DNA of 64,000 nt from Acidimicrobiaceae bacterium (lineage in GTDB: Bacteria > Actinomycetota > Acidimicrobiia > Acidimicrobiales > Aldehydirespiratoraceae), in NCBI GenBank assembly GCA_009843735.1, contig VYCW01000087.1, positions 7,589-71,588 of the forward strand, given 5' to 3'. Shown one piece after another: positions 29,320-49,456 of the stretch. The stretch's first letter is position 1, and each line of letters starts with the position of its first letter. A program made the translations under genes and the position numbers. The notes under the pieces were generated by a model. The model saw only the letters and a list, made by a program, of their open reading frames with translations. It ran no database searches and had not been told where the DNA came from.

Positions 29320-29808
29320 CTAGAGGGTCCAGGTGGAGAGGACCAGGGCCCTGTCGCGCCAGGCCTGGATGTTGGCGTCGAGGACGTCGAGCGGGTTGAA
29401 GGGGGTCACGCCCTCCATCACGTCGTCCTCGCGCATACCGTAGAGCGCGCCCATGGCGAAGCGGCAGCAGTACACCGTCGCGCCCTCGTTGATGAGGGTC
29501 TGGAGCTGGCGGTTGTACCCGAGGTTGCCGGGGAAGCCCTCCTGGCCCACCGCCGGGTAGCCCCGGGCAGCGTTGGCCATGAGCACGGCCGGGCCGTACA
29601 GCACGAACGTGAGCTTGAAGCCCTTGCGCTGCAGGCGGGTGGCGGTGAGCATGTTCACCAGGCCGACCGAGCCCTCGAAGGGCACGGTGTGCATGAACAC
29701 GTACGCCTGATCGCCCTCCTCAGCCTTGTAATCGGGGAAGACCTTCTCCTCGATGTTGTGCATGACGTCGCCCTCTTGGGGCGGCGGGATGGTCACTGTC
29801 TTTGGCAT
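29320..29808 (-). CDS. Hypothetical protein, proposed MSMEG_0572/Sll0783-family (Nit1C 'Hp1') member
   Basis: 162 aa. Assigned from size and conserved gene order (flavoprotein, small protein, ~160-aa protein) as in the MSMEG_0569-0570-0572 arrangement. Family identity not verified. Confidence 0.5.
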   Translation of the reverse strand: MPKTVTIPPPQEGDVMHNIEEKVFPDYKAEEGDQAYVFMHTVPFEGSVGLVNMLTATRLQRKGFKLTFVLYGPAVLMANAARGYPAVGQEGFPGNLGYNRQLQTLINEGATVYCCRFAMGALYGMREDDVMEGVTPFNPLDVLDANIQAWRDRALVLSTWTL

Positions 29809-29859
29809 TTCGCCTCCTTGTTGTCGATGTTGTCGATGTCTGGATCGGTTGCGGAAGGG

Positions 29860-30120
29860 TCAGACAGCCGGTCCCCGGGGCCGGCCCGACCGGATAGGCC
29901 AGTCCCTCCGGTGAGAGCCCGGCAGGATAGCGATGACGCGGCGCCGGATGCCCCACGGAAGCAGGCGGTACACCGGCGTGAACACGTGCCTCCAGAAGAT
30001 CTCCCGAGCGCCTCGCGCCTTCTGGGGAGCCCGGGCGCCGTAACGGGCCCCGACACGCCGCTGAGCGTCGATGGCCAGGTAGCGCTCGGAGTTCGAGCGG
30101 AGCCAGTGAGCGAAACTCAT
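29860..30120 (-). CDS. Small hypothetical protein, proposed MSMEG_0570-family (Nit1C 'Hp2') member
   Basis: 86 aa, 18 nt downstream of the flavoprotein gene. Assignment by position and size only. Confidence 0.45.
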   Translation of the reverse strand: MSFAHWLRSNSERYLAIDAQRRVGARYGARAPQKARGAREIFWRHVFTPVYRLLPWGIRRRVIAILPGSHRRDWPIRSGRPRGPAV

Positions 30121-30138
30121 GAGCGAGTCTGCCGGCCC

Positions 30139-31461
30139 CTACAGCCCGGCCAGGAGGTTCTGCGCGGCCACCGAGATCGGCTCGTTGAGGGCGCCGATGG
30201 CGGGCGAGTAGACGTTCTCCATCGTGGCCAGCTCCTCAACGGTGAGCCCGACCCGCACCGCCATGGCCAGGAAGTCGGCCCGCTCCTTGATGCCCTCGCC
30301 GCCCACCATCTGCGCGCCGATCAACCGGAGCGACCCCGGCTCGGCCAGCAGCTTCACGGTGATGGGCCTCACGCCCGGGTAGTAGCGGGCCCGGGTGATG
30401 CCCTGGGCCTTGCCCACCACGTGCTGGATGCCCAACGCGGTGGCCAGCGTCTCGCCGAAGGACACCCCGCCGATCATCCACTCTCCGGCCAGCAGGCCCC
30501 ACGGCACGAACACCGGCCGGTAGTGGCGGGTGCCGCCCGCCGCGTTGGTGCCGGCCGTCTTGCCCTGGGCGTAGGCGTGGGAACCGGTCAGCCCCTGGAT
30601 CGGGATGTCGGTGACGCCGTGCGGGATCTCGGTGCAGTCGCCGGCCGCGTAGATGTTCGGATCGGAGGTCTGCATCCTGGAGTCGACGACCAGCCCGCCG
30701 GTCGTACCCAGCTGCAGACCGGCGGCCTCGGCCAGCGGGTTGTTGGGCACCTTGTGAGTGCCGATGATGACGATGTCGGTGTCGATGTCGCCCTGCTCGG
30801 TCTCGACCCGACTCACAGCGCCATCGCCCCTGAAGGCGGTGACCCAGTTGCCCCACTGCATGTCGACATCGGCGTCCTCCCAGGCCTGGCGGACGGGCTC
30901 GACGATGTCGGGATCGAGCACATCGGCCATCGGCCAGGGGGCCCGGTCGACGACGGTCACCTTGATCCCCCGGTGCAGCAGGGCCGCGACCATCTCCATG
31001 GCCACCAGACCGGCCTCGACGATCACCGCCGACTTGCAGGAGTCGAGGCGCTTGTCCCAGTCCATGGCCGCCCGGATGTACTTGACCTCGTAGATCCCGT
31101 CGAGGTCGGCCCCATCGACATCCACCTTGGCGTAGTTCCAGCCGGCGCCGATGATGAGCCGGTCATAGGACACCACGCCCTCACCCGCGACGGTGAGGGT
31201 GCGCGCCTTCGCGTCGATGGCCTCGACGGTGGTCTCGTAGTGGACGTCGATCCCGGTGTTTACGTACTGCTCCTTGGTGGCCAGGAAGAGCCGCTCGAAT
31301 GAGTCGATCTCGCGCCCGTGGACGTAGGGGATCCCGCAGGGGCTGTAGGCCACATCAGTGTCGGCGGTGTAGACCACCACCTCCGCGCTGGGATCGACCG
31401 CCTTGGCCGCGCCGGCGGCACCCAGTCCTGCGGCGCCTCCGCCGATCACTGCGATCCGCAT
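30139..31461 (-). CDS. Pyridine nucleotide-disulfide oxidoreductase (NADH oxidase/CoA-disulfide reductase-like); proposed MSMEG_0569-family flavoprotein
   Basis: 440 aa. MRIAVIGGGAAG, single redox Cys in YSPCGIPY, and a second Rossmann fold. Confidence 0.8.
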   Translation of the reverse strand: MRIAVIGGGAAGLGAAGAAKAVDPSAEVVVYTADTDVAYSPCGIPYVHGREIDSFERLFLATKEQYVNTGIDVHYETTVEAIDAKARTLTVAGEGVVSYDRLIIGAGWNYAKVDVDGADLDGIYEVKYIRAAMDWDKRLDSCKSAVIVEAGLVAMEMVAALLHRGIKVTVVDRAPWPMADVLDPDIVEPVRQAWEDADVDMQWGNWVTAFRGDGAVSRVETEQGDIDTDIVIIGTHKVPNNPLAEAAGLQLGTTGGLVVDSRMQTSDPNIYAAGDCTEIPHGVTDIPIQGLTGSHAYAQGKTAGTNAAGGTRHYRPVFVPWGLLAGEWMIGGVSFGETLATALGIQHVVGKAQGITRARYYPGVRPITVKLLAEPGSLRLIGAQMVGGEGIKERADFLAMAVRVGLTVEELATMENVYSPAIGALNEPISVAAQNLLAGL

Positions 31462-31503
31462 TGTCTTCCTCTCGTCACTCCGAACCGTCTCCCGGCCCGC
31501 TCA

Positions 31504-31592: not shown

Positions 31593-32048
31593 TCAAACGG
31601 CCACCACCGACAGCTCGGGGGTGTTGCGGATGGTGTTGCTCACGTAGCACACCCGGGCCGCGGCCTCCACCAGCGCGGCCTTGACGGACTCCTCGCAGCC
31701 GGCGTCGACCCGTATCTCCAGCGCCGAGAACCGGGGCCCGTCGTAGGTGCCGGTCACCTCCACATCGACATGGGACAGCTCGATGCCGCGCTTGCCGGCC
31801 GCGTGGGCCACCGCCAGCGTGAAGCAGGACGACAGCGCGGCCAGGAGCAGCTCGGTCGGCTGGGGCCCCTCGTTGGTGCCGCCCACGCTCTCGGGCTCGT
31901 CCACCGGGATCGTGAAGTCGCCGGCGGTGACATCGCAGCGGTATGCACCCAGCCACCGGGCCGAGACTGTGCGGGTAAGCGAACTCACGAAGAAGTCGTC
32001 CTTCAGGCGGTGGCTCAGCCCGTCAACTATACGACGCCCCCCGATCAC
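31593..32048 (-). CDS. OsmC/Ohr family peroxiredoxin-like protein
   Basis: GGTNEGPQPTELLLAALSSC and VCYVSNT motifs. Alternative GTG start at 31988. Confidence 0.8.
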   Translation of the reverse strand: MIGGRRIVDGLSHRLKDDFFVSSLTRTVSARWLGAYRCDVTAGDFTIPVDEPESVGGTNEGPQPTELLLAALSSCFTLAVAHAAGKRGIELSHVDVEVTGTYDGPRFSALEIRVDAGCEESVKAALVEAAARVCYVSNTIRNTPELSVVAV

Positions 32049-32081: not shown

Positions 32082-32720
32082 ATGCGCCGCGAGACCGGCA
32101 ACGGCAACGGAGGAGACGGCTCGGAGACACCGCCGAGCCCGACGCACGGCGAGGACCTGAGCGCGGTCGTGAACTCGATCGGACCCAAGGTCCGCCACCT
32201 TCGCAAGCAGTGGAACCTGTCGCTGCAGCAGCTCGCCGACCGGTCCAACGTCTCGACCGCAGCCATCCACAAGGTCGAGCAGGGCGCGATGGTGCCGACC
32301 ATCACGACGCTGCTGAAGCTGGCTGCGGCCCTGGAACAGCCGGTGTCGTACTTCGTGGAGGAGGACCAGGAGCCGCCGCTGTACGCGGTCTTCACACCCG
32401 CCGCCGAGCGCCGGTCGATCTACACGCCCCATGAGGGTCTCTCCCTGGGCGGCATCTCGGGCCCCTACGGGCAGTACTTCGTGGCGACCGCCATCGCCGA
32501 GGTCGAGCCGGGGGCCGACAGCGGCGAGAACCCTCTGCGCCACGCCGGCGAGGAGCTCATCCACATGCTGTCGGGGCGGCTCGACGTCGATGTCGGCGAC
32601 CAGTCGTTCCAGCTGCGCCGGGGCGACTCGATCCACTTCCGGACCGACCAGGAGCACCGCTGGCACAACCCGTACCGGCACACCGCACGGGCGGTGTGGA
32701 CCGCCCTGAGACCCACCTGA
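32082..32720 (+). CDS. XRE-family HTH transcriptional regulator with C-terminal cupin domain (PuuR-like architecture)
   Basis: IGPKVRHLRKQWNLSLQQLADRSNVSTAAIHKVEQG HTH, followed by a cupin (GEELIHMLSGRL...GDSIHF). Confidence 0.85.
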   Translation: MRRETGNGNGGDGSETPPSPTHGEDLSAVVNSIGPKVRHLRKQWNLSLQQLADRSNVSTAAIHKVEQGAMVPTITTLLKLAAALEQPVSYFVEEDQEPPLYAVFTPAAERRSIYTPHEGLSLGGISGPYGQYFVATAIAEVEPGADSGENPLRHAGEELIHMLSGRLDVDVGDQSFQLRRGDSIHFRTDQEHRWHNPYRHTARAVWTALRPT

Positions 32721-32744: not shown

Positions 32745-34160
32745 TCAGTCCTGTGACAGCCGCTGGTCGAGGTCGAGGAGGGCCTGCATGAAGCACTCGG
32801 CGGGGGCGCGGGCCACTCCGGCGCCCACCTGGCCGGACCCGTCGGAGACGTGGAGGATCCCGGTGTTGACCGCCGGGGTGATGGAGGTCTCGACCACCCG
32901 GCGGACATCGACCCCGAGGGGGGTTCCGGCGTTGTCGAGCACCGGTAGACGGAACCGGCTGCTGGTGCTGGCGCAGATGCGGCTCATCGCCGCCGTGACG
33001 GCTGCCGCATCGGCCATACGGCCCCCGAGGAAGCCGGCCACCGCCGGAGAGTTGGCCGCGGCCGGGCCACCCAGCCCCACCAGTTCCAGCACGGCGCTGT
33101 CACCGATGTCGGGGGCGCTGGTGTCGGGACCCTGATCCGGGTAGTACAGGGCGTCCTGCACAGGGGGCGCCTCCGCGATGAACCAGTTCTCGGGCCGGCC
33201 GGCCAGGCGGATGCCGTAGGTGGTGCCGTTGCGGCACATGGTGGTGACGATGCTCGAGTCCGGCACCTGGCCGGCCCACTCGACCAGAGCGCGGGCACCG
33301 GCCATGACCACGTTGAGGAACATCAGGTGGTTGGTGCTCAGGAAGTCGGCCACCTCGCCGATCCGGGCGACATCCGAGCGGACTAGTTGCGGGAGCAGGT
33401 CGCGCAGCAGCAGGTTGGTGGTGGCCTGGACCCGCATGTGCACGTCGTCGCCCATGGTGATGCCCTGAGCGGCCAGTGAGAACACATCGACCGGTCCGGT
33501 CCCGTCGAGAGCCCGGGCCAGGGCCGGACCGAGCGCGTCCCGCAGGAACCGGAGGCGCTCGATGGCCGCGTCGGAGTCGACCCCGAACCAGGCGACCTCC
33601 CCGGAGCCCTGGTTCAGGCTGGAATAGGCGGTGGTGCCGCCAGCATCGACCGAAACCACGTAGACCGGCGCGCTGGGACCGATCGCGGTGGCCATCGGCA
33701 CCACCGTGCAGTGCTCATTAGCCGGCTCCAGGCCGATCTCACCGGCCTGCACCATGCGGTCGGCGGCATCGCTGTTGGAGGCCCAGCCCTCGGCCACGAC
33801 CGCGGCCCTGACCGAGCGCCGGAGCGGGTCGCACATGTCGGCCCAGGCGATCCGCGGCCCGCAGTGCAGGATCGTCGCTTCGTCCAGGCCGCCGATCACC
33901 GAGCCCGCCGTGTCCACGCCCTGCAGCATGGGCACACCGCGGTCCAGGCGGCTGATCACCTCCGCGTTGGCCGCGTCCACCCGGTCCGAGGCCGGGCCCA
34001 GCAGCCGGGCCAGCGCCGCCACCGCGTCGAGGTCGCCGCCGGCGGGGATGCGCCAGTCCACGCCGACCGCGGGGGCGCCCTGGTCGCGTACCGCGGTCTC
34101 GAACCGCTCCAGGCCGATGTTGACGACTTCCACCCTGTCGGGCAACTCGATGGCGCCCAT
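32745..34160 (-). CDS. DUF1116 family protein (YlbE/AllG-like)
   Basis: 471 aa. Resembles the E. coli YlbE family that partners FdrA and YlbF. Confidence 0.65.
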   Translation of the reverse strand: MGAIELPDRVEVVNIGLERFETAVRDQGAPAVGVDWRIPAGGDLDAVAALARLLGPASDRVDAANAEVISRLDRGVPMLQGVDTAGSVIGGLDEATILHCGPRIAWADMCDPLRRSVRAAVVAEGWASNSDAADRMVQAGEIGLEPANEHCTVVPMATAIGPSAPVYVVSVDAGGTTAYSSLNQGSGEVAWFGVDSDAAIERLRFLRDALGPALARALDGTGPVDVFSLAAQGITMGDDVHMRVQATTNLLLRDLLPQLVRSDVARIGEVADFLSTNHLMFLNVVMAGARALVEWAGQVPDSSIVTTMCRNGTTYGIRLAGRPENWFIAEAPPVQDALYYPDQGPDTSAPDIGDSAVLELVGLGGPAAANSPAVAGFLGGRMADAAAVTAAMSRICASTSSRFRLPVLDNAGTPLGVDVRRVVETSITPAVNTGILHVSDGSGQVGAGVARAPAECFMQALLDLDQRLSQD

Positions 34161-34335: not shown

Positions 34336-34881
34336 TTACGACATCGTGACGAGCAGGGCGCTCGGCGTGTCGCGGGCGGCGGGCAGTCGCAGGTGGGCGT
34401 CCTCCGGGATGTCGGCTTCGACCAGCCTCCGGGCCTCAGCCAGCCGGAAGATCATCGGCTGGTGGGGCAAGCCGTAGTAGGGCACGGGCGGCCCGTTGTG
34501 CTCCCATCCGATGCGCTCGAAGAAGGTGACGTTCTGGAGTTGCACGAAGGCGTCCATCACAGTGCCTCCGGCTTCAGCGGCAGTCGACACCGCGAAACGG
34601 ACGAGCCTGATCCCGACGATTCCCGCCCGGTAGCCGGGCAGCACGGCCAGGCGGTCGCCCTTCCAGCGGCCGGCGTCGTCGGTGCGGTACAGGCGGACCG
34701 TGCCGATCACCTCCGGTCCCCGGCCGGCGACCACGTGGATCGTGTCGGGGTCGGCGTCCCAGTCGTCGACGTCGGTGAGGGGAATGACCCGCTGCTCCTC
34801 CACGAACACCCGGTGCCGGATGCGCATGTGCCAACTCCGGGCCTCCGGGGAGACAGCCCGCCAGCATTCGATGCGCTCCAC
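34336..34881 (-). CDS. GNAT N-acetyltransferase, proposed MSMEG_0567/Sll0786 family
   Basis: 181 aa. RHRVFVEEQ... GNAT core. 13 nt downstream of the radical SAM gene, as in Nit1C clusters. Confidence 0.7.
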   Translation of the reverse strand: MERIECWRAVSPEARSWHMRIRHRVFVEEQRVIPLTDVDDWDADPDTIHVVAGRGPEVIGTVRLYRTDDAGRWKGDRLAVLPGYRAGIVGIRLVRFAVSTAAEAGGTVMDAFVQLQNVTFFERIGWEHNGPPVPYYGLPHQPMIFRLAEARRLVEADIPEDAHLRLPAARDTPSALLVTMS

Positions 34882-34894: not shown

Positions 34895-36013
34895 TCAGCC
34901 CAGGGCCTTCACGGGGATCAGCTTGCGCCCATTGGACCCCTGCAGTTCCCGCTCCATCGCTCCCACCGGCGAGCAGGCCTGGCAGCGGGCGCATCCGGCC
35001 GCGACCTTGTCCGCGGTCAGTCCCCGCTCCACCAGGTACGGCGCAACCTTCCGGGCGACCTGATCGACGTAGCCGGCGGCCGGCGGCGTCCAGTCGCCCA
35101 TCAGCGAGCCCGGGACCGGCCGCAGGGGCACGACGAAGGGGTACACGCCTATGTCGGCGGCCCGCCGGCAGCCCTCGACGATGAGGTCCGGGTCCTCTCC
35201 CATGCCCAGGATCACATAGGTGGAGACCTGGCCCTCGCCGAAGCGCTCCACGGCGTACTCCCAGGTCTCGAAGTAGCGGTCGATGCCGGTGCGGTACTTG
35301 GGGGGAGCGACCCACCGCAGCACCTCCGGATCGAAGGTCTCCACATGGATGCCCACCGAGTCGATGCCCCGTGCGGCCACTTGGTCGATCACACTGAGGT
35401 CGTCGGGCGGCTCGAACTGGACTTCGACAGGAAGGCCCGAGGCCTCCTTCATCGCCTGGCCGCACTTGGCCACGTAGAGGGCGCCCTTGTCGCGGCCGTA
35501 GGTGGAGCCTGTGGTCAAGGTGATGTCCACGGCGCCGTCGAGTTCCTTGGCCGCCACCGCCACCTCGGCCAGCTGCGCGGGGCGCTTCACCAGCACGGTG
35601 CTGCCGGAGTCCAGCGACACCCCGATCCCGCAGAAGCGGCACTGATCCTCGTTGCCCCAGTAGGCGCAGGTCTGCAGAACGGTGCTGGCCAGCGAGTCGA
35701 GGTGCATGAGGGCCAGGTGCCAGTAGGGGACGCCGTCGTCGGTGGTGAGACCGTAGAACCGGGGCCGGTCGGCGGGAGCCGCGCCGGCCAGCCGGACGCC
35801 GTCAGCGTAGATCCCGAACCCGACGTCCTCAGGCTCCAGCGAGTAGGGGGAGTCGGCCACGAATCCAGCGTCCACCGGCACCGTCACCGCAGTGCCCTCG
35901 ATCCAGACCATGCCCGCGTCCGACGGCCCGGCACCGCCCGGCCGTCGCTCGAAGGGGGCGTTTATCCGCAGACCCTTGAACTGGAGGTCAATGATGAGTT
36001 CGGCCAGGGACAC
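34895..36013 (-). CDS. Radical SAM protein, proposed MSMEG_0568 family
   Basis: 372 aa. Cys triad C116-X8-C125-X2-C128 (CAYWGNEDQCRFC), TIM-barrel-like core, and a C-terminal CARCQAC. Confidence 0.75.
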   Translation of the reverse strand: MSLAELIIDLQFKGLRINAPFERRPGGAGPSDAGMVWIEGTAVTVPVDAGFVADSPYSLEPEDVGFGIYADGVRLAGAAPADRPRFYGLTTDDGVPYWHLALMHLDSLASTVLQTCAYWGNEDQCRFCGIGVSLDSGSTVLVKRPAQLAEVAVAAKELDGAVDITLTTGSTYGRDKGALYVAKCGQAMKEASGLPVEVQFEPPDDLSVIDQVAARGIDSVGIHVETFDPEVLRWVAPPKYRTGIDRYFETWEYAVERFGEGQVSTYVILGMGEDPDLIVEGCRRAADIGVYPFVVPLRPVPGSLMGDWTPPAAGYVDQVARKVAPYLVERGLTADKVAAGCARCQACSPVGAMERELQGSNGRKLIPVKALG

Positions 36014-36115: not shown

Positions 36116-36643
36116 TTAGGGGATCTCGTTCCCCGTGGCGAGGATCAGAGCCGGCACCCAGAACGTGTAGATCGCGGTTCCGGCCAGGACCAGGCCCAGG
36201 AGCTTGGCTTCGAGCTTGCCGTAGGTGGTGAGGGCCACCGACCCGAACGCGACCAGCCACACGATAAGGATCGACTGGAACATCCAGCTGCCGTCGAAGA
36301 AGTCCCACCAGAACATCGGGAGGATGGCCGTCGGCACGGCGAGGTTCCCCACCACGCGCAGGTCCCATCCATTGGCCTCTGTCTTGCCGAGAACCACGAA
36401 GAACAGGCCGTAGAACGTGACCAGTCCGGCGAGGACGACCGACGCGTCGTCCAGCGGCCGGGCCCACATGATGTAGACGGCCTGGACCAGGTTCAGCAGA
36501 CCCACGATCAGGCTGGCGTGCCCGATGCTGACAAGCGGGTTCGTTCCCCCCTCCTTCTGATCGGCGCCCACGCCGAGGAAGTAGAGGGCGTTCAGCCACA
36601 CGATTAGGCCGGTGGCAATGAACACGATGGTTATGGGAGGCAT
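36116..36643 (-). CDS. AmiS/UreI family amide/urea channel
   Basis: 175 aa with six predicted TM helices. Size and W/F-rich pattern are typical of AmiS/UreI. Confidence 0.65.
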   Translation of the reverse strand: MPPITIVFIATGLIVWLNALYFLGVGADQKEGGTNPLVSIGHASLIVGLLNLVQAVYIMWARPLDDASVVLAGLVTFYGLFFVVLGKTEANGWDLRVVGNLAVPTAILPMFWWDFFDGSWMFQSILIVWLVAFGSVALTTYGKLEAKLLGLVLAGTAIYTFWVPALILATGNEIP

Positions 36644-38415: not shown

Positions 38416-38463
38416 CGGAGCCTCCCGTTTGCTGGATTCCTCGGTCGCTGACCCGGCGTGTCA

Positions 38464-38469
38464 ACTATA
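38464..38469 (-). promoter_or_regulatory. Candidate -10 box TATAGT upstream of nthB
   Basis: TCTTATAGT on the minus strand, 49 nt upstream of the ATG. The same 9-mer recurs at 45674..45682. No good -35. Confidence 0.3.
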
Positions 38470-38506
38470 AGACAGCGACTCGTCGCAAGAGAAACGCGAG
38501 CGCCCC

Positions 38507-40027: not shown

Positions 40028-40030
40028 CGG

Positions 40031-42312: not shown

Positions 42313-43105
42313 CGAGCGACCCCGCGGTGTGGGTGGGAAGGCTGGTCCTGAGGGTGTCGGAGCGCAGCCCGCGCCGGAGCGCCTCCACGCCGAGCACCTC
42401 AGCCGGAGCGATGTTGGCCAGGTTGACGTTCGCGCCCAAGTGGTTGATGAGCCAGGCCTGCTGCTGGCGCCGCGGCGCCTCGTAGACGACCGGCGCGTCC
42501 TCGCCGAGGCGTCCCAGGGCCTCCACCAGGTCGGTGCGAACCGACCCGTCGGCGCCATAGAGGCCCACCGTCCCGCTCTCGCGGCCCTCGGCCACCAGCC
42601 ACGCCGCGCCGCAGTCCAGGTCGCTGCGGGCCTCGTCGAGCCATTCCGACGGCAGGGCCGGCTCATGGGGATCCTTGCTGCCCACCTCCGAGAACACTTC
42701 GAAGCCGTGGCCGCGGGCCGCACCGATCAGTTCGCGCTTGGAAGAGGCCGGCAGGCCGGTAGCGCCCCGCGAGACCTCCACGCAGCCGAAGCCGAGACGG
42801 CGGGACCAGTCGAAGAACTCGGCGCTGCGGCCCTGCCACCACGCTGCTTCCAGCAGGGTCCCGCCCGGACAGGCCTTGACGCCGTGGGTCTCCAGCAACT
42901 CGATCTTGGCTCCGACCGTGCTGTCGATGTAGGCGGTGCCGAAGCCGAACTTCCAGACATCCACGAACGCGCCGTGGGCCTCGAGCAGTTCGCCCATGCT
43001 CTCCAACGGCGTGCCCTTGTCGATTATGTGGGTGATCCCCCGGCGGCGCGGCTTGGTCGTCCGAGCGGCAGTCTCAAGGAACCGGGGAGGCTCGGAGATG
43101 GGCAT
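42302..43105 (-). CDS. Phosphosulfolactate synthase (ComA) family protein
   Basis: KPRRRGITHIIDKG and DVWKFGFGT motifs of the ComA TIM barrel. ATG 43105 lies behind AGGAGA. Tracked TTG start at 43135. Confidence 0.75.
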   Translation of the reverse strand: MPISEPPRFLETAARTTKPRRRGITHIIDKGTPLESMGELLEAHGAFVDVWKFGFGTAYIDSTVGAKIELLETHGVKACPGGTLLEAAWWQGRSAEFFDWSRRLGFGCVEVSRGATGLPASSKRELIGAARGHGFEVFSEVGSKDPHEPALPSEWLDEARSDLDCGAAWLVAEGRESGTVGLYGADGSVRTDLVEALGRLGEDAPVVYEAPRRQQQAWLINHLGANVNLANIAPAEVLGVEALRRGLRSDTLRTSLPTHTAGSLGGP

Positions 43106-43127
43106 CGGGATGATCTCCTGACCGGCG

Positions 43128-43964
43128 TCACCCAACGGCGGGCCGAGACACCATTGTACGGGTCACGTCAGTACGGGGCAGTTCGGTGGCGGCCAGAGCG
43201 AGGCCGGCGGTGAGCGCCCGGCCCGAGGTCGCGCCCACTGCGGCCAGCGACTGGGCGGCCCGCACCATTGCGTCGCCGTCGCCGGATCCTGCCGCGTCCA
43301 GCAAGGCGTGGGCGGGCTGGATGCTCTGGCCGGCCGCGGCCCACCTCAGGTAGGCGCGGCTGAGCGTGGTCGTGCGGGCCGTGCGGGCCAAGCGCCCCAG
43401 GGCTACGCGGCGTGCCGAGTCCGTGGCGCACGCCAGCAGGATCCCGGCGAGCACGTCGTCGCCGCTCGGCGTGAGCCCGGGGCCACGCCCCGCAAGCCGA
43501 CCGAACACCGCGGCCAGGTCCCCGCGCCGAAGGTCATGTTTCACCGCTTCCCAAACGGGTGCCAGATCGACGTCCACTCCGGCCGCGAGACCATGCCAAG
43601 CCTCCGGGTCTGCCTTGAGGCGCTCGGGCAGGCTCGGTGCCCAGCGACGGCATCCGTCGAGCAGTACGGCGACCGGGCCGGCCACAAGGGTGCCGTCGGA
43701 GACACGCACTCTCTCGTGAACCGCAGGTAGTTCAGCCATCTCGCCGACGACGAGGTGCAGGGGCCCCGGCCAGTGTCGGGGACCCACTACCGCGAAGATC
43801 TCCTCGGAGGGGCCTGAGACATAGAAGCCGTCGTCGAAGGCGCCCTGCACCCGGCCGACGAATCCGGGACAGGCCGCTTCGAGAACCCCGGCACCGCACC
43901 AGAGCACCGGGACGGGCTCCGCTACTGCTGTACCGTGCGGCCGTGGCCCCGCCCGAGTCATCAT
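43128..43964 (-). CDS. DUF2877 family protein (YlbF/AllH-like)
   Basis: GRGPGLTPSGDDVLAG motif. ATG 43964 (MMTRAG...). The upstream part of the tracked ORF is Arg-rich, non-coding-like sequence. Confidence 0.65.
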   Translation of the reverse strand: MMTRAGPRPHGTAVAEPVPVLWCGAGVLEAACPGFVGRVQGAFDDGFYVSGPSEEIFAVVGPRHWPGPLHLVVGEMAELPAVHERVRVSDGTLVAGPVAVLLDGCRRWAPSLPERLKADPEAWHGLAAGVDVDLAPVWEAVKHDLRRGDLAAVFGRLAGRGPGLTPSGDDVLAGILLACATDSARRVALGRLARTARTTTLSRAYLRWAAAGQSIQPAHALLDAAGSGDGDAMVRAAQSLAAVGATSGRALTAGLALAATELPRTDVTRTMVSRPAVG

Positions 43965-43978
43965 CGCTGGACCGGCTG

Positions 43979-44902
43979 GTGGACGCGGTCCGCACCCATG
44001 GAGGCTTGCGGGCCAAGCGGGCGATCGGAGCTGTCCGGCGCGTCCTCGGTGCCGCCGATCCGCTGAGCGGTCCCGGCGACGACGGCGCCGCGGTGGAGAT
44101 GTCCACCGCCGGCTCGGTGATCGTGTGCGGCGAAGCGCTCCTTCCCGGCTTCGTGGCATCGGATCCCCGGGGCGCGGGGATCGCGGCGGTGCTCGCCAAC
44201 GTCAACGACCTCGCGGCCATGGGAGCGGTCCCCAGAGCGATCGTGAACACTGTCGTAGCGACGGCACCAGTGGCGGCTGAGGCTCTGGGAGGCATGGCCG
44301 AGGCCGCGGCCCTCTACGACGTGCCCATTGTGGGCGGTCACCTGACCGAGCACCAGGGCGAACCGGCGCTGTCGGCGTTCGCGGTCGGCGACGCCGACCG
44401 GGTCCTGTCGGCCGACCGAGCCCGTGCAGGCCAGCATCTCGTGTTCGCCTGCTGCCTCGACGGCAGGATGCGGACCGACTTCGACTTCTTCACCACCCTC
44501 GAATCGCAGGGACCCCGCCTGGCTGCTGATGTGCGTCTGCTGGCCCGGGCGGCCAGCGAGGGTCTCGCTTCGGCGGCCAAGGATGTCAGCATGGCCGGAG
44601 CGATCGGTTCGCTGGCGATGCTGCTTGAACCCGGACGCCTCGGTGCCGAGATCGACCTGCACACGCTGCCGGGGCCTGAGGGGGTGGCCCTGGACCGCTG
44701 GCTGGTCTGCTTCCCGACTTACGCCTTCTGGCTGGCCACGGGCAGACCCGAAGCCTGTGTGGACCTGTTCCGGTCGGCGGGACTGGCCGCCAGCGTCGTC
44801 GGGACCGTCACCGACAGCGGCGTTCTGGCGCTCCGGCAGGGCACCGAGAGCCGGGATGTGATCGATCTCAGACGAGAACCCGTCACCGGTCTCTGGGATT
44901 GA
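43979..44902 (+). CDS. AIR synthase-related (PurM/ThiL/HypE-like) protein, proposed sll0787 family
   Basis: GPGDDGAAVE ATP/Mg motif, NVNDLAAMGA, and the C-terminal PurM_C-like half. Start uncertain (GTG 43979 or CTG 43967). Confidence 0.7.
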   Translation: MDAVRTHGGLRAKRAIGAVRRVLGAADPLSGPGDDGAAVEMSTAGSVIVCGEALLPGFVASDPRGAGIAAVLANVNDLAAMGAVPRAIVNTVVATAPVAAEALGGMAEAAALYDVPIVGGHLTEHQGEPALSAFAVGDADRVLSADRARAGQHLVFACCLDGRMRTDFDFFTTLESQGPRLAADVRLLARAASEGLASAAKDVSMAGAIGSLAMLLEPGRLGAEIDLHTLPGPEGVALDRWLVCFPTYAFWLATGRPEACVDLFRSAGLAASVVGTVTDSGVLALRQGTESRDVIDLRREPVTGLWD

Positions 44903-44933: not shown

Positions 44934-45593
44934 TCAGGCTCCGGCCGCCTCGATCCGGCTCTTCATGGTCAGCCGGTGATCCTCGAAGAGTTCAGGGTCG
45001 CCGGTCTCCACGTCCCCGAAGGACGCCGCATCCAGCTCAGCCGTCCGGCCGTGCTCGTCGCCCAGCGCGGCCACCATCACCACATAGGTGGGCGCCATCG
45101 TCGAGGGATCGGGCTCGACGGTGCTGACCACCGCCAGCCCGGTGGCCAGATGCAGCTCGATGCGCTGGTAGGGATCGACGAGGCCGGCACCCAGGTCGCC
45201 CTGCTCGTGGACCACCGCCCACGCCTCTCCGGCCTCGCGGGCCGCGGCGATGCGGTCCCGGCGCTCCCGCTCGGCCCGCTCGGCCAGCAGCTCGCGGCGG
45301 CGAATCGCGAACCCAGCCCCGGCGATCTCCGCCTCGGGTAGCCGGTACCCGGCGATGTCGCCGGACGCCCGCAGCGCCCCGTCCACCAGATCGAACCGGC
45401 GCTCCCACCACTCCGCCAGCCCGTCCAGGTCCTCGACCTCCGCCAGGGCGTCGGCCACCGCTCTCACCAGCCTCACCGCGGACTGGTATGCGTCCGGGTT
45501 GGTGGTGGCCACCGGATAGAGCCGGCGCTCACTCTCGTCCCAATGGGCGGCCAGCACCGCAGTGGGGTCTGTGGCCGGAGAGCGGTCGCTCAT
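44934..45593 (-). CDS. Hypothetical protein
   Basis: 219 aa from ATG 45593 with an acidic, coding-like composition. No recognised family. Confidence 0.5.
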   Translation of the reverse strand: MSDRSPATDPTAVLAAHWDESERRLYPVATTNPDAYQSAVRLVRAVADALAEVEDLDGLAEWWERRFDLVDGALRASGDIAGYRLPEAEIAGAGFAIRRRELLAERAERERRDRIAAAREAGEAWAVVHEQGDLGAGLVDPYQRIELHLATGLAVVSTVEPDPSTMAPTYVVMVAALGDEHGRTAELDAASFGDVETGDPELFEDHRLTMKSRIEAAGA

Positions 45594-45764: not shown

Positions 45765-46745
45765 TTGGCCGAGACCGCAGTCCTCGCTCTCGGTGGCAAC
45801 GCGCTGATCCGCGAGGACCAGCGGGGCACCCTGGAGGAGCAGTACGCCAACGCGCTGGCCATGGCCCTGTCGGTCCGCTCGCTGATCCGCAAGGGCTGGA
45901 ACGTGGTCATCGTGCACGGCAACGGCCCCCAGGTCGGCAACCTGGCCATCCAGCACGAGGGCTCGATCGATCTCGTCCCCGCCCTGCCCCTGTTCACGCT
46001 CGGAGCCATGACCCAGGGGCAGCTGGGAAGCCTGATCTGCCTCGCCCTCAACGAGGTGTGCAAGCAGGAGATCGCCGGGGCGGTGTCCATCATCACCCAC
46101 GTCGAGGTTGACTCGGGCGATCCCAGACTGTCCGAGCCCACCAAGCCGATCGGCCCGTTCTTCGACCAGTCCGAGGCCGAGTCCCTGGCGGCCAATAGGG
46201 GCTGGACAATGGCCGAGGACGCCGGACGCGGCTACCGGCGGGTGGTGCCGTCACCGCGGCCGATGGCACCCATCGAGGCCGACGCCATCTCGGCGCTCAT
46301 CGATCTGGGGTACATCGTGGTGGCCGGCGGCGGGGGCGGGATCCCCGTGGCCCGGTCCGCCGACGGCGCCTACCGGGGTGTCGATGCGGTCATCGACAAG
46401 GACTTCGCGGCCGAGCGCATCGCGGACGCGGTGGCGGCCCAGGCTCTGGTTATGGTCACCGGTGTGGCCGCGGTTCAACTCCATTTCGGCACTCCCCGGC
46501 AGCAGGCGGTGACCGAGATGACGGCCACCGAGGCCCGGCGCCATCTGGCCGACGGCCAGTTCCCTCCAGGAAGCATGGGACCCAAGGTCGAGGCGGCGAT
46601 CGAGTTCGTGGAAGCTCCGGGACGGATCTCGGCCATCACCACTCCCGAATTGGTGTACGGGACCCTCGACGAGCCTGCCGGTGTGATAGCAGGCCCGCGG
46701 GGCACCCGGATAGTGCCCGATCCGGTTCCCGCGCTGATCTCCTGA
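45765..46745 (+). CDS. arcC: Carbamate kinase
   Basis: 326 aa. LALGGNAL, VIVHGNGPQVG and GGGGIPV motifs. TTG start behind AGGGAG. Confidence 0.9.
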   Translation: MAETAVLALGGNALIREDQRGTLEEQYANALAMALSVRSLIRKGWNVVIVHGNGPQVGNLAIQHEGSIDLVPALPLFTLGAMTQGQLGSLICLALNEVCKQEIAGAVSIITHVEVDSGDPRLSEPTKPIGPFFDQSEAESLAANRGWTMAEDAGRGYRRVVPSPRPMAPIEADAISALIDLGYIVVAGGGGGIPVARSADGAYRGVDAVIDKDFAAERIADAVAAQALVMVTGVAAVQLHFGTPRQQAVTEMTATEARRHLADGQFPPGSMGPKVEAAIEFVEAPGRISAITTPELVYGTLDEPAGVIAGPRGTRIVPDPVPALIS

Positions 46746-46757
46746 CGGATCCAGGCC

Positions 46758-48308
46758 ATGACCGCCACAGCCAAGGTCGTCGCAGACTGCTACGTCGACA
46801 GTGTGCGACTGCTCGAGGCAACCCGCGCCATGCGCGAGGCTCCCGGTGTCGACTGGGCCTGGGCGCTCATGGCCACGCCGGCCAACCTGGAGGTCCTCTT
46901 CGACGAGGGAGTGACCGAAGGGCTCGACGGCGCCGCGGCCAACGACCTCGTCCTGGCGGTCAAGGGCACCGACGAGAACTTGCCGGCAGCCCTGTTGAGA
47001 GCCTGGGCGGTGCTGTTCGAGGAGACCGGTTCAGCCGGTACCGGCGCCCCGCCTGACGCACGCCCCGCCGGCCTGGACGACGCTCTGGTCTCGGCACCGG
47101 AGGCCAACGTCGCCATCGTCTCCGTGCCCGGCCCGTACGCAGCCCTCGAGGCCCACAAGGCCCTCACCCGCGGTCTCGACGTGCTGCTGTTCAGCGACAA
47201 CGTGGACTTGGCCGACGAGATCGATCTGAAGCGCCGGGCCCGCTCTATCGGTCGCCTGGTCATGGGACCGGGCGCGGGCACGGCGGTGCTGGCCGGTGTG
47301 GGCCTCGGCTTCTCGAACCGGGTGGCTCGCGGCCCGGTGGGGGTGGTGGCCGCGGCCGGCACCGGCGCTCAGGAAGTGATGACGTTGCTCGACCGTTGGG
47401 GATCGGGCGTGTCCCATGTCATCGGGGTGGGCGGCCGGGACCTCTCGGCCGCGGTCGGAGGGGCCATGGCCGGGGCGGCCATCGAGGCGCTCGACCGCCA
47501 CGAAGGGACCGAGTTGACGCTCCTGGTGTCCAAGCCGCCCGCAGCCGAGGTCGCCGAGCGCCTGCTGGGCGCTTCCCGCAGCAAGCCGCTGGTGGCCGCA
47601 TTGATCGGGTTGGACCGGCCGGTGAACGCAGCGCCCGGCGTCACGGTGTGCGGCACGCTCGAGGAGGGAGCCGTGGCCGCGCTGAGCGCGCTCGGTTCGG
47701 CGGAACCCGACCCGGTCGGCTCCCTCGACGCCGAGGTCGCCAGGCTCACCACCGCCCTCAGCCCATCCCGCAGGCGCATGGTCGGGCTGTTCAGCGGGGG
47801 CACGCTGGCCTACGAGGCCATGGTCGTCGCCAGTCGCCACATCGGGCCGGTGTACTCGAACACGCCGCTCGAGCCCTCCTGGGGGCTGCCCGGTCCCGGA
47901 GATGGTCACGTGTGCCTGGACCTCGGCGAGGAGGAGTACACGCAGGGCAGGCCCCACCCCATGATCGACCCCGAGGCCAGGGTCGAGCTGCTGCGCCAGC
48001 AGGCCTCGGATCCGAGCGTGGGCGTCGTGCTGCTCGATGTGGTCATCGGCGACGGGGCCCACCCCGACCCCGCAGCGGTGCTGGCTCCGGTCGTCGCGGA
48101 GCTGGTGGCGACGGGCGCGGCCGTGGTGGCCTACGTCCTGGGCACCGACCGCGACCCGCAGGGCTTCGAGCGCCAGCGCGACGTGATGCGCCAGGCCGGC
48201 TGCGTCGTCGCCGACACCAGCGCCCGGGCGGCCCTGGCCGCGGCCGCTCTCATCAACCGCGACGCTGCCCTCCTCCACTACGACCTGTCGGCGCACCTGG
48301 CGACGTGA
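46758..48308 (+). CDS. fdrA: FdrA family protein (succinyl-CoA-synthetase-alpha-like; AllF-like)
   Basis: 516 aa. YVDSVRLL N-terminus and CoA-ligase-like GPGAGTA / GTGAQE segments. Confidence 0.75.
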   Translation: MTATAKVVADCYVDSVRLLEATRAMREAPGVDWAWALMATPANLEVLFDEGVTEGLDGAAANDLVLAVKGTDENLPAALLRAWAVLFEETGSAGTGAPPDARPAGLDDALVSAPEANVAIVSVPGPYAALEAHKALTRGLDVLLFSDNVDLADEIDLKRRARSIGRLVMGPGAGTAVLAGVGLGFSNRVARGPVGVVAAAGTGAQEVMTLLDRWGSGVSHVIGVGGRDLSAAVGGAMAGAAIEALDRHEGTELTLLVSKPPAAEVAERLLGASRSKPLVAALIGLDRPVNAAPGVTVCGTLEEGAVAALSALGSAEPDPVGSLDAEVARLTTALSPSRRRMVGLFSGGTLAYEAMVVASRHIGPVYSNTPLEPSWGLPGPGDGHVCLDLGEEEYTQGRPHPMIDPEARVELLRQQASDPSVGVVLLDVVIGDGAHPDPAAVLAPVVAELVATGAAVVAYVLGTDRDPQGFERQRDVMRQAGCVVADTSARAALAAAALINRDAALLHYDLSAHLAT

Positions 48309-49456
48309 GGCGACCGGACCGGATCGCGATCGTCACCTTCTCGGTCAAGCCTCGCGGCGGCGCCGTGCACAGCGTGGAACTGGCGGAGGCTCTGGCCGCC
48401 GAAGGCGTCGACGTGACCCTCATCGCCCTGGGCGATCCGGCGGAGGGGTTCTTCAGGGCCGCGACGGTGCCGGTGCACATCATCGAAGCCCCCCGGCGTG
48501 CCCCGACGCTGACCGAGCGGGTCTTCTCGCACATCGACGCCCTCGAGTCGGGCCTCGGGGACCTGCGGGGCCGGTTCGACATCGTGCACACCCAGGACTG
48601 CATATCGGCCCGGGCCGCGGCCCGGGTACGGGACCGCGGCGGCGGCTTCCGGCTCTTCCGGACGGTTCACCACATAGACGACTTCACCACGCCCGCGCTT
48701 GTCGAGTGCCAGGACGCGGCCATCCTGGAGCCGGACCGGGTGCTGGTGGTTAGCGAGCCCTGGAGGCGGCGCCTTCTCGACGAGTACGGCGTGGAGGCGG
48801 CGGTGGTCACCAACGGGGTGAGGGTCGAGCGGTTCGCGGGCGCAAGGCCACCCGGCGAACGGGACCGGCTACGAACCCGGATCGGCGCCGCCGACCGCCA
48901 CGTGTTCCTGACGGTGGGAGGGATCGAGCCCCGCAAGGGCTCGCAGTACCTGGTCGAGGCGCTGGGCCTGCTCAAGGCCATGCCGGGACAGGCCCCGATG
49001 CTGGCGGTGGTGGGCGGGCACTCCTTCCAGGACTATCGGGCCTACCGGGACGACGTGCTCGACTCGCTGGGGTCCCACGGCCTGCGGCTCGACGACGACG
49101 TGGCGCTGATCGGGACGGTTCCCGACGCCGAGCTGCCCGGCTGGTTCGGTGCTGCCGACAGCTTCGTGTTCCCGTCGGTCAGCGAGGGCTGGGGCCTGGC
49201 GGTGCTGGAGGCCCTGGCCGCAGGGCTGCCGGTGGTGACCTCCGACATCGAGGTCTTCAAGGAGTTCCTGACCCACGAAGTCGATGTGGTAATGACCGAG
49301 ACGGCCAACCCGGCCTCGCTGGCCGCCGGCATGGCCAGGGTGAGAGACGAACCCGACCTAGTGCAACGGCTGCGGGCCAACGGCGCGGCCACGGCCGGCC
49401 GCTACTCGTGGTCGAGCACGGCCCGGCGCCACCTGGAGCTCTACACCGGGGATTGA
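48305..49456 (+). CDS. GT4 glycosyltransferase, proposed MSMEG_0565 family
   Basis: GTG 48305 overlaps the fdrA stop (GTGA). PSVSEGWGLAVLEALAAGLPVV E-x7-E motif. 383 aa. Confidence 0.8.
   Translation: MRRPDRIAIVTFSVKPRGGAVHSVELAEALAAEGVDVTLIALGDPAEGFFRAATVPVHIIEAPRRAPTLTERVFSHIDALESGLGDLRGRFDIVHTQDCISARAAARVRDRGGGFRLFRTVHHIDDFTTPALVECQDAAILEPDRVLVVSEPWRRRLLDEYGVEAAVVTNGVRVERFAGARPPGERDRLRTRIGAADRHVFLTVGGIEPRKGSQYLVEALGLLKAMPGQAPMLAVVGGHSFQDYRAYRDDVLDSLGSHGLRLDDDVALIGTVPDAELPGWFGAADSFVFPSVSEGWGLAVLEALAAGLPVVTSDIEVFKEFLTHEVDVVMTETANPASLAAGMARVRDEPDLVQRLRANGAATAGRYSWSSTARRHLELYTGD

Follow-up and report, generated by a model that had tools for sequence, protein, structure and literature searches.

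A 64-kb stretch of DNA from an Acidimicrobiaceae bacterium of the family Aldehydirespiratoraceae (assembly GCA_009843735.1, contig VYCW01000087.1, positions 7,589 to 71,588 of the forward strand), here called the window, contains a 21-kb block of about 24 genes that is a composite of four modules. The block unites relatives of the Nit1C cluster, a set of coenzyme M (CoM)-type genes, thiol-redox genes, and a putative nitrogen-release set with a cobalt (Co)-type nitrile hydratase (NHase) and a transcarbamoylase of the AllFGH type. A nitrile is very likely a true intermediate of its pathway, because a nitrilase is exchanged for the NHase in an otherwise homologous cluster. We tentatively favor a reading in which the block would salvage nitrogen from a C≡N compound via amide or carbamoyl intermediates with the assistance of a thiol cofactor.

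The window has a GC content of about 70%, and gene reality was judged by third-position GC bias with one coding frame per stretch. All open reading frames (ORFs) named in a preliminary description of this DNA are real, keep their coordinates, and show a strong third-position GC bias. Protein identities were assigned with NCBIfam curated cut-offs and Pfam, together with BLASTP, tblastn, and PDB comparisons; where two scores are given, the second is the cut-off.

Conservation and the nitrilase-hydratase exchange

A scan of one genome per species with the XcbC-like protein as query recovered 64 loci at 60-100% identity in two phyla. Carriers include sponge-type Acidimicrobiia (among them Ca. Aldehydirespirator and Ilumatobacter), Kribbella, Nocardioides, Pseudonocardia, Ruegeria, Silicimonas, Hoeflea, Denitrobaculum, and Paraburkholderia. 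Genes were counted in the 53 loci with a full view of ±10 kb, and the lower counts largely reflect this 10-kb horizon. ComA and XcbA are present in all 53 loci, XcbD and AllG in 52, AllH and NHase in 50, and OsmC and a flavoprotein of the coenzyme A (CoA)-disulfide reductase (CoADR) type in 48. A regulator of the XRE-cupin type is kept in 45 loci, a small protein termed sm86 in 43, the MSMEG_0572 family in 40, an AIR-synthase (AIRS)-like protein in 39, a GNAT acyltransferase in 35, and a radical SAM protein in 33.

Gene order differs between lineages. Because the order is shuffled while the gene set is kept, selection has acted on co-localization, and the block is a selected functional unit. 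The preliminary description had allowed for a fortuitous juxtaposition; the same set in shuffled order in 64 species-representative genomes rules out chance.

In several unrelated lineages, the cluster lies directly beside Calvin-cycle or pentose-phosphate genes (L052, 12738-15589; L072, 13373-20279; L073; and L077, 13063-20261). The same kind of neighbors is found in Kribbella loci L050, L053-L057, and L061 and in Nocardioides aquiterrae L038, the last with a GAPDH-like gene only. These neighbors comprise the large and small subunits of RuBisCO, CbbX, ribulose-phosphate epimerase, HAD phosphatases, FBP aldolase, PGK, and transketolase, with GAPDH inside the cluster in some such loci. None of these Calvin-cycle or pentose-phosphate genes occurs in the present window.

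The NHase is a Co-type enzyme with its genes on the minus strand. Its alpha subunit (37159..37755; TIGR01323, 303.9 bits vs 249.9) contains the motif VCTLCSCY, and its closest solved chains are the Co-type NHases 4ob1, 1v29, and 2dpp. It is accompanied by the beta subunit (37756..38415; TIGR03888, 207.8 bits vs 152.2) and by the accessory (activator) protein (36780..37148; TIGR03889, 67.3 bits vs 46). Assignment as a thiocyanate hydrolase was rejected, as TIGR03887 reaches 199 bits against a cut-off of 291 while the NHase model passes. An AmiS/UreI-family channel for short amides or urea is encoded nearby (36116..36643, minus strand; PF02293, 27.1 bits vs 25), and its gene is seen only in the Acidimicrobiia loci L001-L033.

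The cobalt transporter subunit CbtA (49441..50160, minus strand; PF09490, 171.9 bits) probably supplies cobalt for the NHase. It is followed by a probable CbtB (50230..50472, minus strand; PF09489, 25.4 bits, E=1.6e-5, slightly short of the gathering score of 27). The Co-type NHase operons of Pseudonocardia, Geobacillus, and Rhodococcus share with the block the beta-alpha-activator order, the VCTLCSCY metal site, and a nearby cobalt transporter. Unlike in these operons, there is no amidase partner among the family matches of the cluster ORFs, and the NHase genes are embedded in a far larger conserved cluster.

A Nit6803-type nitrilase gave no tblastn match in the 64-kb window at E≤1 with Methylocystis and Klebsiella queries, which excludes one just outside the cluster, a position that the preliminary description had named as grounds for refuting its reading. 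Pfam and NCBIfam detected no CN_hydrolase among the block ORFs and the called ORFs of at least about 240 aa outside it, with shorter ORFs and the 15.9-19.5 kb region covered by tblastn only. A nitrilase was likewise absent from 67 related genome-scan loci (tblastn, 1e-5). Sister clusters on Methylocystis iwaonis plasmids and in Ensifer adhaerens and Sphingobium sp. LB126 carry a Nit6803/CN_hydrolase nitrilase next to the radical SAM, GNAT, and AIRS-like genes and have no NHase in view. These nitrilase-type sisters share the CoADR-type flavoprotein, sm86, the 0572 protein, AllG, the FdrA-glycosyltransferase pair, the unnamed 219-aa protein, the cupin regulator, OsmC, and the series ComA-XcbA-XcbD-XcbE-XcbC. 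The swap of nitrilase for hydratase is a non-orthologous displacement at one pathway step.

In the Actinomycetota metagenome-assembled genome (MAG) DASZOO010000038 (L074, 11549-12409), an Amidohydro_2 gene (PF04909) lies just upstream of the radical SAM and GNAT genes, in the nitrilase slot. It would be a third alternative hydrolase at the nitrilase step.

Nit1C-type and thiol-redox genes

Nit1C (nitBCDEFGH; sll0783-0787; MSMEG_0565-0572 or gpr) is a bacterial gene cluster known since 2005 and induced by nitrogen starvation in cyanobacteria; of its chemistry, only the nitrilase reaction is known. In Pseudomonas, Nit1C is needed for cyanide assimilation (PMC11049912). The MSMEG_0565-0572 operon of M. 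smegmatis is likewise induced by nitrogen starvation, by more than 500-fold, and it makes cells resistant to peroxide and increases NADPH/NADP (PMC6039565). The operon was not switched on by peroxide, and its 0572 protein was noted as DsrE-like (PMC6039565).

The MSMEG_0572/Sll0783-family protein of the window is of the NitB/Hp1 type (29320..29808, minus strand; TIGR04044, 201.5 bits vs 109.85) and contains a Cys-Cys motif. It is weakly DsrE-like, and weak matches to Pfam DsrE (E=9e-4) and to PDB 3mc3 echo the likeness noted in M. smegmatis. The protein is 73-100% identical across related loci and only 54% identical to that of canonical Klebsiella Nit1C.

The MSMEG_0567/Sll0786-family GNAT acyltransferase (34336..34881, minus strand; TIGR04045, 91 bits vs 68.45) also matches the N-acyl amino acid synthase FeeM at 30 bits. 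It adjoins the MSMEG_0568-family radical SAM protein (34895..36013, minus strand; TIGR04043, 362.8 bits vs 303.7). The latter has a Cx8Cx2C motif (Cys116/125/128) instead of Cx3Cx2C, as well as a C-terminal CxxCxxC (341/344/347), and it also matches the NCBIfam model ‘variant_rSAM’ NF045502. The MSMEG_0565-family GT4 glycosyltransferase (48305..49456, plus strand; TIGR04047, 370.3 bits vs 259.85) is translationally coupled to fdrA through a GTGA overlap. After its own family, its best NCBIfam match is the mycothiol-type glycosyltransferase MshA at 94 bits, with BshA at 54 bits.

A divergent sll0787-type AIRS-like protein of the PurM superfamily is encoded at 43943..44902 on the plus strand, with its start at 43943 or 43979, and contains AIRS and AIRS_C domains. 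Its best match is TIGR04049 with 245.9 bits, below the cut-off of 321.3, while a nitrilase-type homolog from Ensifer reaches 468. The methanogenesis marker 2 model scores 179 bits and the HypE model only E=0.05. The protein is 37% identical to canonical sll0787-type proteins.

The preliminary description had listed all Nit1C members except the nitrilase as present. Four of the seven non-nitrilase families (0572, GNAT, radical SAM, and glycosyltransferase) pass their cut-offs and the divergent AIRS-like protein falls below its own, while the Hp2 and flavoprotein assignments do not stand. Thus, among the six Hp1, Hp2, GNAT, radical SAM, AIRS, and glycosyltransferase candidates, four pass, AIRS is a near miss, and Hp2 has no match. 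The broader view of the block as a nitrilase-less, NHase-containing relative of the MSMEG_0565-0572 cluster holds, with four families above cut-off and no nitrilase in the window.

The block shares with Nit1C the 0572, 0568, 0567, and 0565 families and the divergent AIRS-like protein, and the 0565-family glycosyltransferase is a member of the versions found in mycobacteria and cyanobacteria. A flavoprotein and a small protein adjoin the 0572 gene here as they do in the canonical order, and a nitrile-hydrolyzing enzyme is present in both. However, that enzyme is a Co-type NHase and no Nit6803 nitrilase, and the flavoprotein and the small protein belong to unrelated families. About 14 further genes, which include Xcb, AllFGH, carbamate kinase, OsmC, regulator, 219-aa protein, and cobalt transport genes, are absent from canonical Nit1C. 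Whereas canonical Nit1C is a single co-directional operon, the block comprises at least seven transcription units, as read from strand changes only. The Nit1C-type members are dispersed over 20 kb among about 14 other genes; the dispersal over at least six units suggested earlier is therefore retained with a higher minimum count.

The small protein sm86 is a basic protein of 86 aa (29860..30120, minus strand) that is the counterpart of MSMEG_0570 by position and not by sequence. It has no NCBIfam or Pfam match even at E≤1 and no BLASTP alignment to MSMEG_0570 of a Klebsiella plasmid. As positive controls, Klebsiella MSMEG_0570 matches TIGR04042 at 117.5 bits and Klebsiella MSMEG_0569 its own model at 640 bits. 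The Hp2-like label proposed for sm86 was abandoned on these grounds. Its homologs form 69 database clusters, all of about 86 aa and all unnamed, with invariant WLRxNxE...PGSHR motifs, and its AlphaFold2 (AF2) model has three helices with a predicted local distance difference test score (pLDDT) of 70. The flavoprotein, sm86, and 0572 genes are adjacent in that order wherever all three are in view.

The flavoprotein (30139..31461, minus strand) is a single-Cys pyridine-nucleotide disulfide oxidoreductase of the CoADR, NADH oxidase, and persulfide reductase group with Pyr_redox_2 and Pyr_redox_dim domains. Its best NCBIfam match is CoADR, below cut-off, and it contains the motif SPCGIPY. The nearest solved structures are NADH oxidase 6ruz, CoA-persulfide reductase 8a56, and CoADRs. 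TIGR04046 is not among the 25 best of its 47 NCBIfam matches, the lowest of which scores 45 bits, and by BLASTP only the GxGxxG motif aligns with MSMEG_0569. It is thus of the CoADR/NADH-oxidase type instead of the MSMEG_0569 family, contrary to its earlier designation as the Nit1C flavoprotein. No homolog of MSMEG_0569 or MSMEG_0570 was found in any related locus. A role as 2-ketopropyl-CoM carboxylase was rejected, with E=1e-11 vs 1e-57 for NADH oxidase/CoADR.

Canonical MSMEG_0569 (Klebsiella L069, 14420-15685) has weak secondary NCBIfam matches to the flavin monooxygenase ArsO (126 bits) and to YpdA, a putative bacillithiol disulfide reductase (55 bits). Together, the YpdA match and the CoADR-type replacement in the block hint that the flavoprotein slot of Nit1C clusters may hold a thiol-disulfide reductase.

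OsmC is an OsmC/Ohr-type thiol peroxidase-like protein (31593..32048, minus strand; PF02566, 72.9 bits). An unnamed conserved protein of 219 aa (44934..45593, minus strand), the product of an ORF termed unk245 with its true start at Met27, has no Pfam, NCBIfam, or PDB sequence match. Its family comprises 152 homologs, typically of 218-219 aa, and homologs with 29-35% identity occur in the distant cluster versions L072 and L074. Its AF2 model has a pLDDT of 88, yet it gave no PDB fold match (best E=0.46, template modeling score <0.3). Both unnamed families, sm86 and the 219-aa protein, belong to the conserved unit.

These genes can also be read as the means to make and maintain a new sulfonate thiol of low molecular weight or a redox buffer of the mycothiol or bacillithiol kind. 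The Xcb proteins would make its sulfonate-cysteine core, the GT4 and GNAT enzymes would decorate it, the flavoprotein would act as its disulfide reductase and OsmC as a peroxidase, and the nitrile and carbamoyl enzymes would serve in tailoring or salvage. The similarity of the glycosyltransferase to MshA and BshA is consistent with such a buffer, as are the CoADR/persulfide reductase grouping of the flavoprotein, the frequency of OsmC (48 of 53 loci), and the weak DsrE likeness of the 0572 family. The YpdA match of MSMEG_0569 means that both flavoproteins could be thiol-disulfide reductases, and the peroxide resistance and raised NADPH/NADP given by the M. smegmatis operon point the same way (PMC6039565). 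However, it is hard to see what part carbamate kinase, the AllFGH-type enzyme, and the almost universal NHase or nitrilase would play in the metabolism of a buffer. Nit1C is regulated by nitrogen status and cyanide and not by oxidants, with peroxide no inducer of the M. smegmatis operon, and the glycosyltransferase and GNAT similarities lie at the family level only. A thiol buffer as the purpose of the block is therefore rather unlikely.

Coenzyme M-type and transcarbamoylase genes

CoM is a small sulfonate thiol that bacteria build with XcbB, XcbC, XcbD, and XcbA (Wu et al. 2022, PMC9457059). XcbC converts phosphosulfolactate to sulfoacrylate, to which XcbD adds cysteine, and Xanthobacter XcbA is a [2Fe-2S] thioaldehyde reductase (PMC9457059). 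XcbE is a pyridoxal phosphate (PLP)-dependent C-S lyase/decarboxylase that is needed for thiol release in the characterized pathway (PMC9457059).

The genes from 43135 to 38507 on the minus strand, which the preliminary description had not recognized as a CoM operon, correspond by sequence to the bacterial CoM biosynthesis set XcbB-XcbA-XcbD-XcbC without XcbE. The phosphosulfolactate synthase ComA/XcbB (42302..43135; PF02679, 252.6 bits; TIGR03849, 244.9 bits, below the archaeal cut-off of 280) is 40% identical to Xanthobacter ComA. The Cys-rich XcbA-family (DUF7714) protein (41365..42312; NF052538, 290.9 bits vs 150; PF24830, 267 bits) is 39% identical to Mycolicibacterium chubuense XcbA and 35% to Xanthobacter Xaut_5051, a conserved hypothetical gene adjoining the xcb operon that is presumably an XcbA copy. 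The XcbD-like enzyme is an adenylosuccinate-lyase family protein (40031..41380, with a GTG start at 41380) whose best match is NF052536 with 504 bits against a cut-off of 600, and it is 41% identical to the Xanthobacter and 49% to the M. chubuense protein. The XcbC-like enzyme is an aspartase/fumarase-superfamily lyase (38507..40027) with NF052535 as best match (436 bits, cut-off 575) and identities of 38% and 47% to the Xanthobacter and M. chubuense proteins, respectively.

The XcbC and XcbD cut-offs appear specific to Xanthobacter-like sequences and say little on function, because XcbC of the alkene oxidizer M. chubuense NBB4 scores only 396 bits on NF052535, below the protein of the window. 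The argument that sub-cut-off scores speak against CoM-type enzymes was accordingly dropped.

The xcbABCDE operons of Xanthobacter autotrophicus Py2 and of Mycolicibacterium and Nocardioides alkene oxidizers have four homologs in the block at 35-49% identity. The order comA-xcbA-xcbD-(xcbE)-xcbC is common to M. chubuense NBB4 and the block, which has no xcbE, and on the models the block proteins score as high as or higher than those of M. chubuense. Within this cluster family, the Xcb proteins form a separate clade with 60-100% identity, compared with 35-49% to the characterized set. Unlike in alkene oxidizers, no CoM-consuming enzymes accompany the Xcb genes, which in every case lie among Nit1C-type, transcarbamoylase, and thiol-redox genes.

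XcbE has no homolog in the 64-kb window, and neither four alphaproteobacterial loci nor any member of the Aldehydirespirator clade shows it within the cluster view of about ±10 kb. An XcbE-like PLP enzyme is encoded between XcbD and XcbC in 22 of 67 loci, with XcbE as best model (212 bits), followed by the D-cysteate sulfo-lyase CuyA (180 bits). The chromosomes without XcbE are not represented among the best 120 of 1063 XcbE-like database matches, a weak negative. No column of the XcbD alignment separates lineages with and without XcbE, and a switch in XcbD specificity tied to XcbE loss was rejected. Without XcbE, the pathway may stop at or branch from an adduct of the sulfopropionyl-cysteine type, or it may use another C-S lyase.

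On one Ca. Aldehydirespirator chromosome (L005, 6017-7752), a 1.7-kb insertion separates ComA from XcbA; the other loci are without it. In the window, the DNA at 37500-40500 (NHase beta, XcbC, and the end of XcbD) is 97-100% identical to the MAG SB0675_bin_16 (L001), while its flanks match SB0665_bin_5 (L013) at 93-96% identity and L001 at only 79-88%. Such a mosaic could have arisen through recent recombination between strains of sponge symbionts living together, or it could reflect a chimeric assembly of the metagenome.

The block might be taken for ordinary CoM biosynthesis for an alkene or epoxide pathway that lies by chance beside a nitrile-degradation operon and a Nit1C remnant. This would agree with four of five Xcb proteins in the M. 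chubuense NBB4 order and with a standard Co-type NHase. However, the window ORFs scanned include no alkene monooxygenase, epoxyalkane:CoM transferase, or 2-ketopropyl-CoM carboxylase, and XcbE is missing. The recurrence of the combination in 64 species-level genomes across phyla disfavors chance, and such an arrangement is highly improbable.

Catabolism of an external sulfonated, nitrogen-rich compound, for example a sponge- or alga-derived sulfonate, is a further way to read the Xcb-like genes. The lyases and ComA would run in reverse to yield sulfite and phosphoenolpyruvate (PEP), and the hydratase, transcarbamoylase, and carbamate kinase would release nitrogen. Among the organisms with the cluster are marine Rhodobacterales and symbionts of sponges (PMC11706023), groups in which the use of organosulfonates is known. 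The match of XcbE-like proteins to CuyA and the presence of a channel protein (AmiS/UreI or DUF1097) in some cluster versions also fit this direction. However, sulfite addition to PEP and phosphate elimination strongly favor biosynthesis (compare PMC9457059), the cluster showed neither a transporter for sulfonates nor an exporter or oxidase for sulfite, and soil Kribbella, Nocardioides, and Ensifer carry it as well. Sulfonate catabolism is accordingly quite unlikely.

AllFGH is an oxamic transcarbamylase that in E. coli forms carbamoyl phosphate from an acyl-urea, and its catabolic partner AllK converts carbamoyl phosphate to ATP, as described in 2024 (PMC11326118). The enzyme works in both directions and was assayed with carbamoyl phosphate and oxamate as starting compounds (PMC11326118). 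The FdrA/DUF1116/DUF2877 and carbamate kinase genes of the block, not recognized earlier as an AllFGH-AllK system, match this enzyme and AllK by sequence. AllG (DUF1116) is encoded at 32745..34160 on the minus strand (PF06545, 230.6 bits). AllH (DUF2877) is encoded at 43128..43961 on the minus strand with an uncertain start at 43907 or 43961 (PF11392, 74.8 bits; homologs of 267-276 aa). A carbamate kinase of the AllK/ArcC type (45765..46745, plus strand; NF009007, 316.8 bits vs 266) precedes FdrA/AllF (46758..48308, plus strand; NF004760, 403 bits, just below 433), which has a Ligase_CoA domain and HMA_AllF_N in its homologs.

All three subunit families and the carbamate kinase are thus common to E. 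coli and the block. However, E. coli has a single allFGHK operon, whereas the subunit genes here start at 32745, 43128, and 46758 on two strands, and fdrA is translationally coupled to a glycosyltransferase. Unlike in the E. coli all system, no allantoin or ureidoglycolate gene families are found among the window ORFs scanned, and oxalurate is an improbable substrate here. In each of the 24 NHase-type loci with fdrA in view, carbamate kinase is encoded directly upstream of that gene; it was not seen in three nitrilase-type loci or in L072 and L074. This pattern fits a hydratase product processed via carbamoyl phosphate, with few independent nitrilase-type cases.

Enzymes of the PurM superfamily activate amide or carbamoyl oxygens with ATP, and among them HypE dehydrates S-carbamoyl cysteine to thiocyanate. 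By analogy with the HypF/HypE synthesis of cyanide ligands, the block could make and not consume a cyano group. Carbamate kinase would supply carbamoyl phosphate, and the AllFGH-type enzyme would carbamoylate the sulfonate thiol, an amine acceptor, or a Cys of the DsrE-like protein. The AIRS-like enzyme would then dehydrate the carbamoyl group to a nitrile or thiocyanate with ATP, and the hydratase or nitrilase would clear excess or spent product. Both systems combine carbamoyl transfer, a PurM-superfamily ATP enzyme, and a cysteine-bearing carrier, and the AIRS-like protein belongs to the PurM/PurL/ThiL/SelD/HypE superfamily. The reversibility of AllFGH is compatible with this direction (PMC11326118), which would also account for the retention of AllG and FdrA in nitrilase-type clusters. 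However, the block has no HypF or HypE homologs, its transcarbamoylase is of the unrelated AllFGH type, and the HypE model gives the marginal value noted above. Canonical Nit1C lacks any transcarbamoylase, carbamate kinases are normally catabolic, and a pathway that both makes and hydrolyzes one nitrile would achieve nothing unless that nitrile served as a group for transfer, a role that nothing here suggests. Cyano-group synthesis is hence unlikely.

The block also encodes a PuuR-like regulator with XRE-type helix-turn-helix and cupin domains (32082..32720, plus strand; NF007408 PuuR, 67 bits, below cut-off; HTH_3 and Cupin_2 in homologs). All of the genes reported as interleaved with the Nit1C-type members, namely the NHase with its accessory protein, AmiS/UreI, the two lyases, the ComA-like and Cys-rich proteins, FdrA/DUF1116/DUF2877/carbamate kinase, the XRE-cupin regulator, and OsmC, are matched by family models. 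Given plausible start codons, the junction sequences agree with the reported overlaps, which are GTGA for fdrA and the glycosyltransferase, 16 nt for XcbD/XcbA, and 11 nt for XcbA/ComA. A scan of the cluster for sigma-70 promoters and intrinsic terminators found none above shuffled expectation, and an Rfam scan of the whole window found no RNA family.

Upstream of the cluster, a one-carbon and methylated-amine gene block (5474-15937) encodes a DAO and GCV_T fusion of the dimethylglycine/sarcosine dehydrogenase type, an ETF subunit, formate-tetrahydrofolate ligase, FolD, a class II aldolase, and a 2-hydroxyacid dehydrogenase. It is followed at 15937-19519 by several plus-strand ORFs that fail the third-position GC filter. 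Downstream, frame bias indicates a protein of about 490 aa on the minus strand between CbtB and gpsA (50496 to about 51990) with no NCBIfam match. After gpsA, and 4 kb past the MshA/BshA-like glycosyltransferase, lies a PIG-L family GlcNAc deacetylase (53681-54412), the family of MshB and BshB, which could belong to ordinary mycothiol metabolism or be a cluster accessory.

The proposed nitrogen-salvage route and its meaning

Thiol-cofactor-assisted nitrogen salvage from a C≡N compound is the reading that we prefer, although with limited confidence. In the CoM-type module, ComA/XcbB, XcbC, XcbD, and XcbA would turn PEP, sulfite, and cysteine into a small sulfonate thiol, or into a close precursor in the lineage without XcbE. 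The CoADR-type flavoprotein, sm86, the DsrE-like 0572 protein, and OsmC would form a thiol-redox module, in which the flavoprotein, OsmC, and the DsrE-like protein would manage the thiol or its redox state. The Nit1C-type module would consist of the variant radical SAM protein, the GNAT, the AIRS-like ATP enzyme, and the GT4. The nitrogen-release module would comprise the Co-type NHase with its activator, CbtAB, the AllFGH-type transcarbamoylase, carbamate kinase, and the amide/urea channel.

Under nitrogen limitation, a C≡N-bearing intermediate would be captured or built on the sulfonate thiol or with its help. The NHase would hydrate this intermediate to an amide or carbamoyl compound, the AllFGH-type enzyme would move the carbamoyl group to phosphate, and carbamate kinase would convert the resulting carbamoyl phosphate to NH3, CO2, and ATP. 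In the sister clusters, where no carbamate kinase is seen, the Nit6803-type nitrilase would hydrolyze the nitrile in one step.

This route agrees with the induction of Nit1C by nitrogen starvation and its requirement in cyanide assimilation, with the PuuR-like regulator, and with CbtA/CbtB near a Co-type NHase. The passage of nitrogen from a nitrile through amide or carbamoyl intermediates, proposed in the preliminary description, thus appears reasonable. The thiol-buffer, HypF/HypE-like, and sulfonate-catabolism alternatives each explain some modules and leave others idle.

Several points weigh against the salvage route. The two Kribbella/Nocardioides loci L050 and L058 lack an NHase within 10 kb, the sequence of the NHase is that of an ordinary Co-type enzyme and hints at no unusual substrate, and Xcb and AllFGH genes are dispensable for the function of canonical Nit1C clusters, which have none. 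CoM itself was not found reported from these taxa in the literature searched, and without XcbE the product in the Aldehydirespirator lineage may be no free thiol. AllG and FdrA persist in nitrilase-type clusters, where the carbamoyl product of a hydratase would not arise; therefore, the transcarbamoylase has at least one hydratase-independent role. The analysis shows the gene identities, their conservation, and the nitrilase-hydratase exchange; what the thiol does, how the hydratase product would reach the transcarbamoylase, the substrate, and the direction of flux are inferred.

In a more concrete version, a CoM-type thiol or cysteine adduct would carry a one-carbon C-N unit from S-cyano (or N-cyano) to S-carbamoyl and on to carbamoyl phosphate. 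This particular chemistry is speculative and, taken by itself, improbable.

No description of the combination of Nit1C, CoM-type, NHase, and carbamoyl genes was found in the full-text literature searched; transcripts for phosphosulfolactate synthase and for nitrile hydratase appear, apart from each other, in a metatranscriptome study of a sponge. The modules are all of known families; new are the conserved way in which they are joined, the two small families, and the connection of Nit1C with CoM-type sulfur chemistry.

The Nit1C problem gains three constraints from this union. The exchange of nitrilase for NHase makes a nitrile a very likely intermediate of the pathway. The cluster's repeated tight linkage to CoM-type sulfonate/thiol biosynthesis and thiol-redox genes points to a previously unsuspected sulfur chemistry, and it is also linked to a transcarbamoylase that forms carbamoyl phosphate. 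Homologs of the bacterial CoM pathway occur in dozens of species that are not alkene oxidizers, including abundant sponge symbionts. If the reading with an S-cyano/S-carbamoyl carrier were true, it would reveal the chemistry of Nit1C, give the CoM genes a second and far more widespread role than alkene oxidation, and provide a new substrate class for AllFGH-type transcarbamoylases. Cultured carriers include Kribbella spp., Nocardioides aquiterrae, N. soli, Ruegeria sp. THAF57, Hoeflea sp. TYP-13, Paraburkholderia elongata, Ensifer adhaerens, Sphingobium sp. LB126, and Methylocystis iwaonis. Because several carriers are in culture, these hypotheses are directly testable, and the old question of what Nit1C does becomes experimentally approachable.

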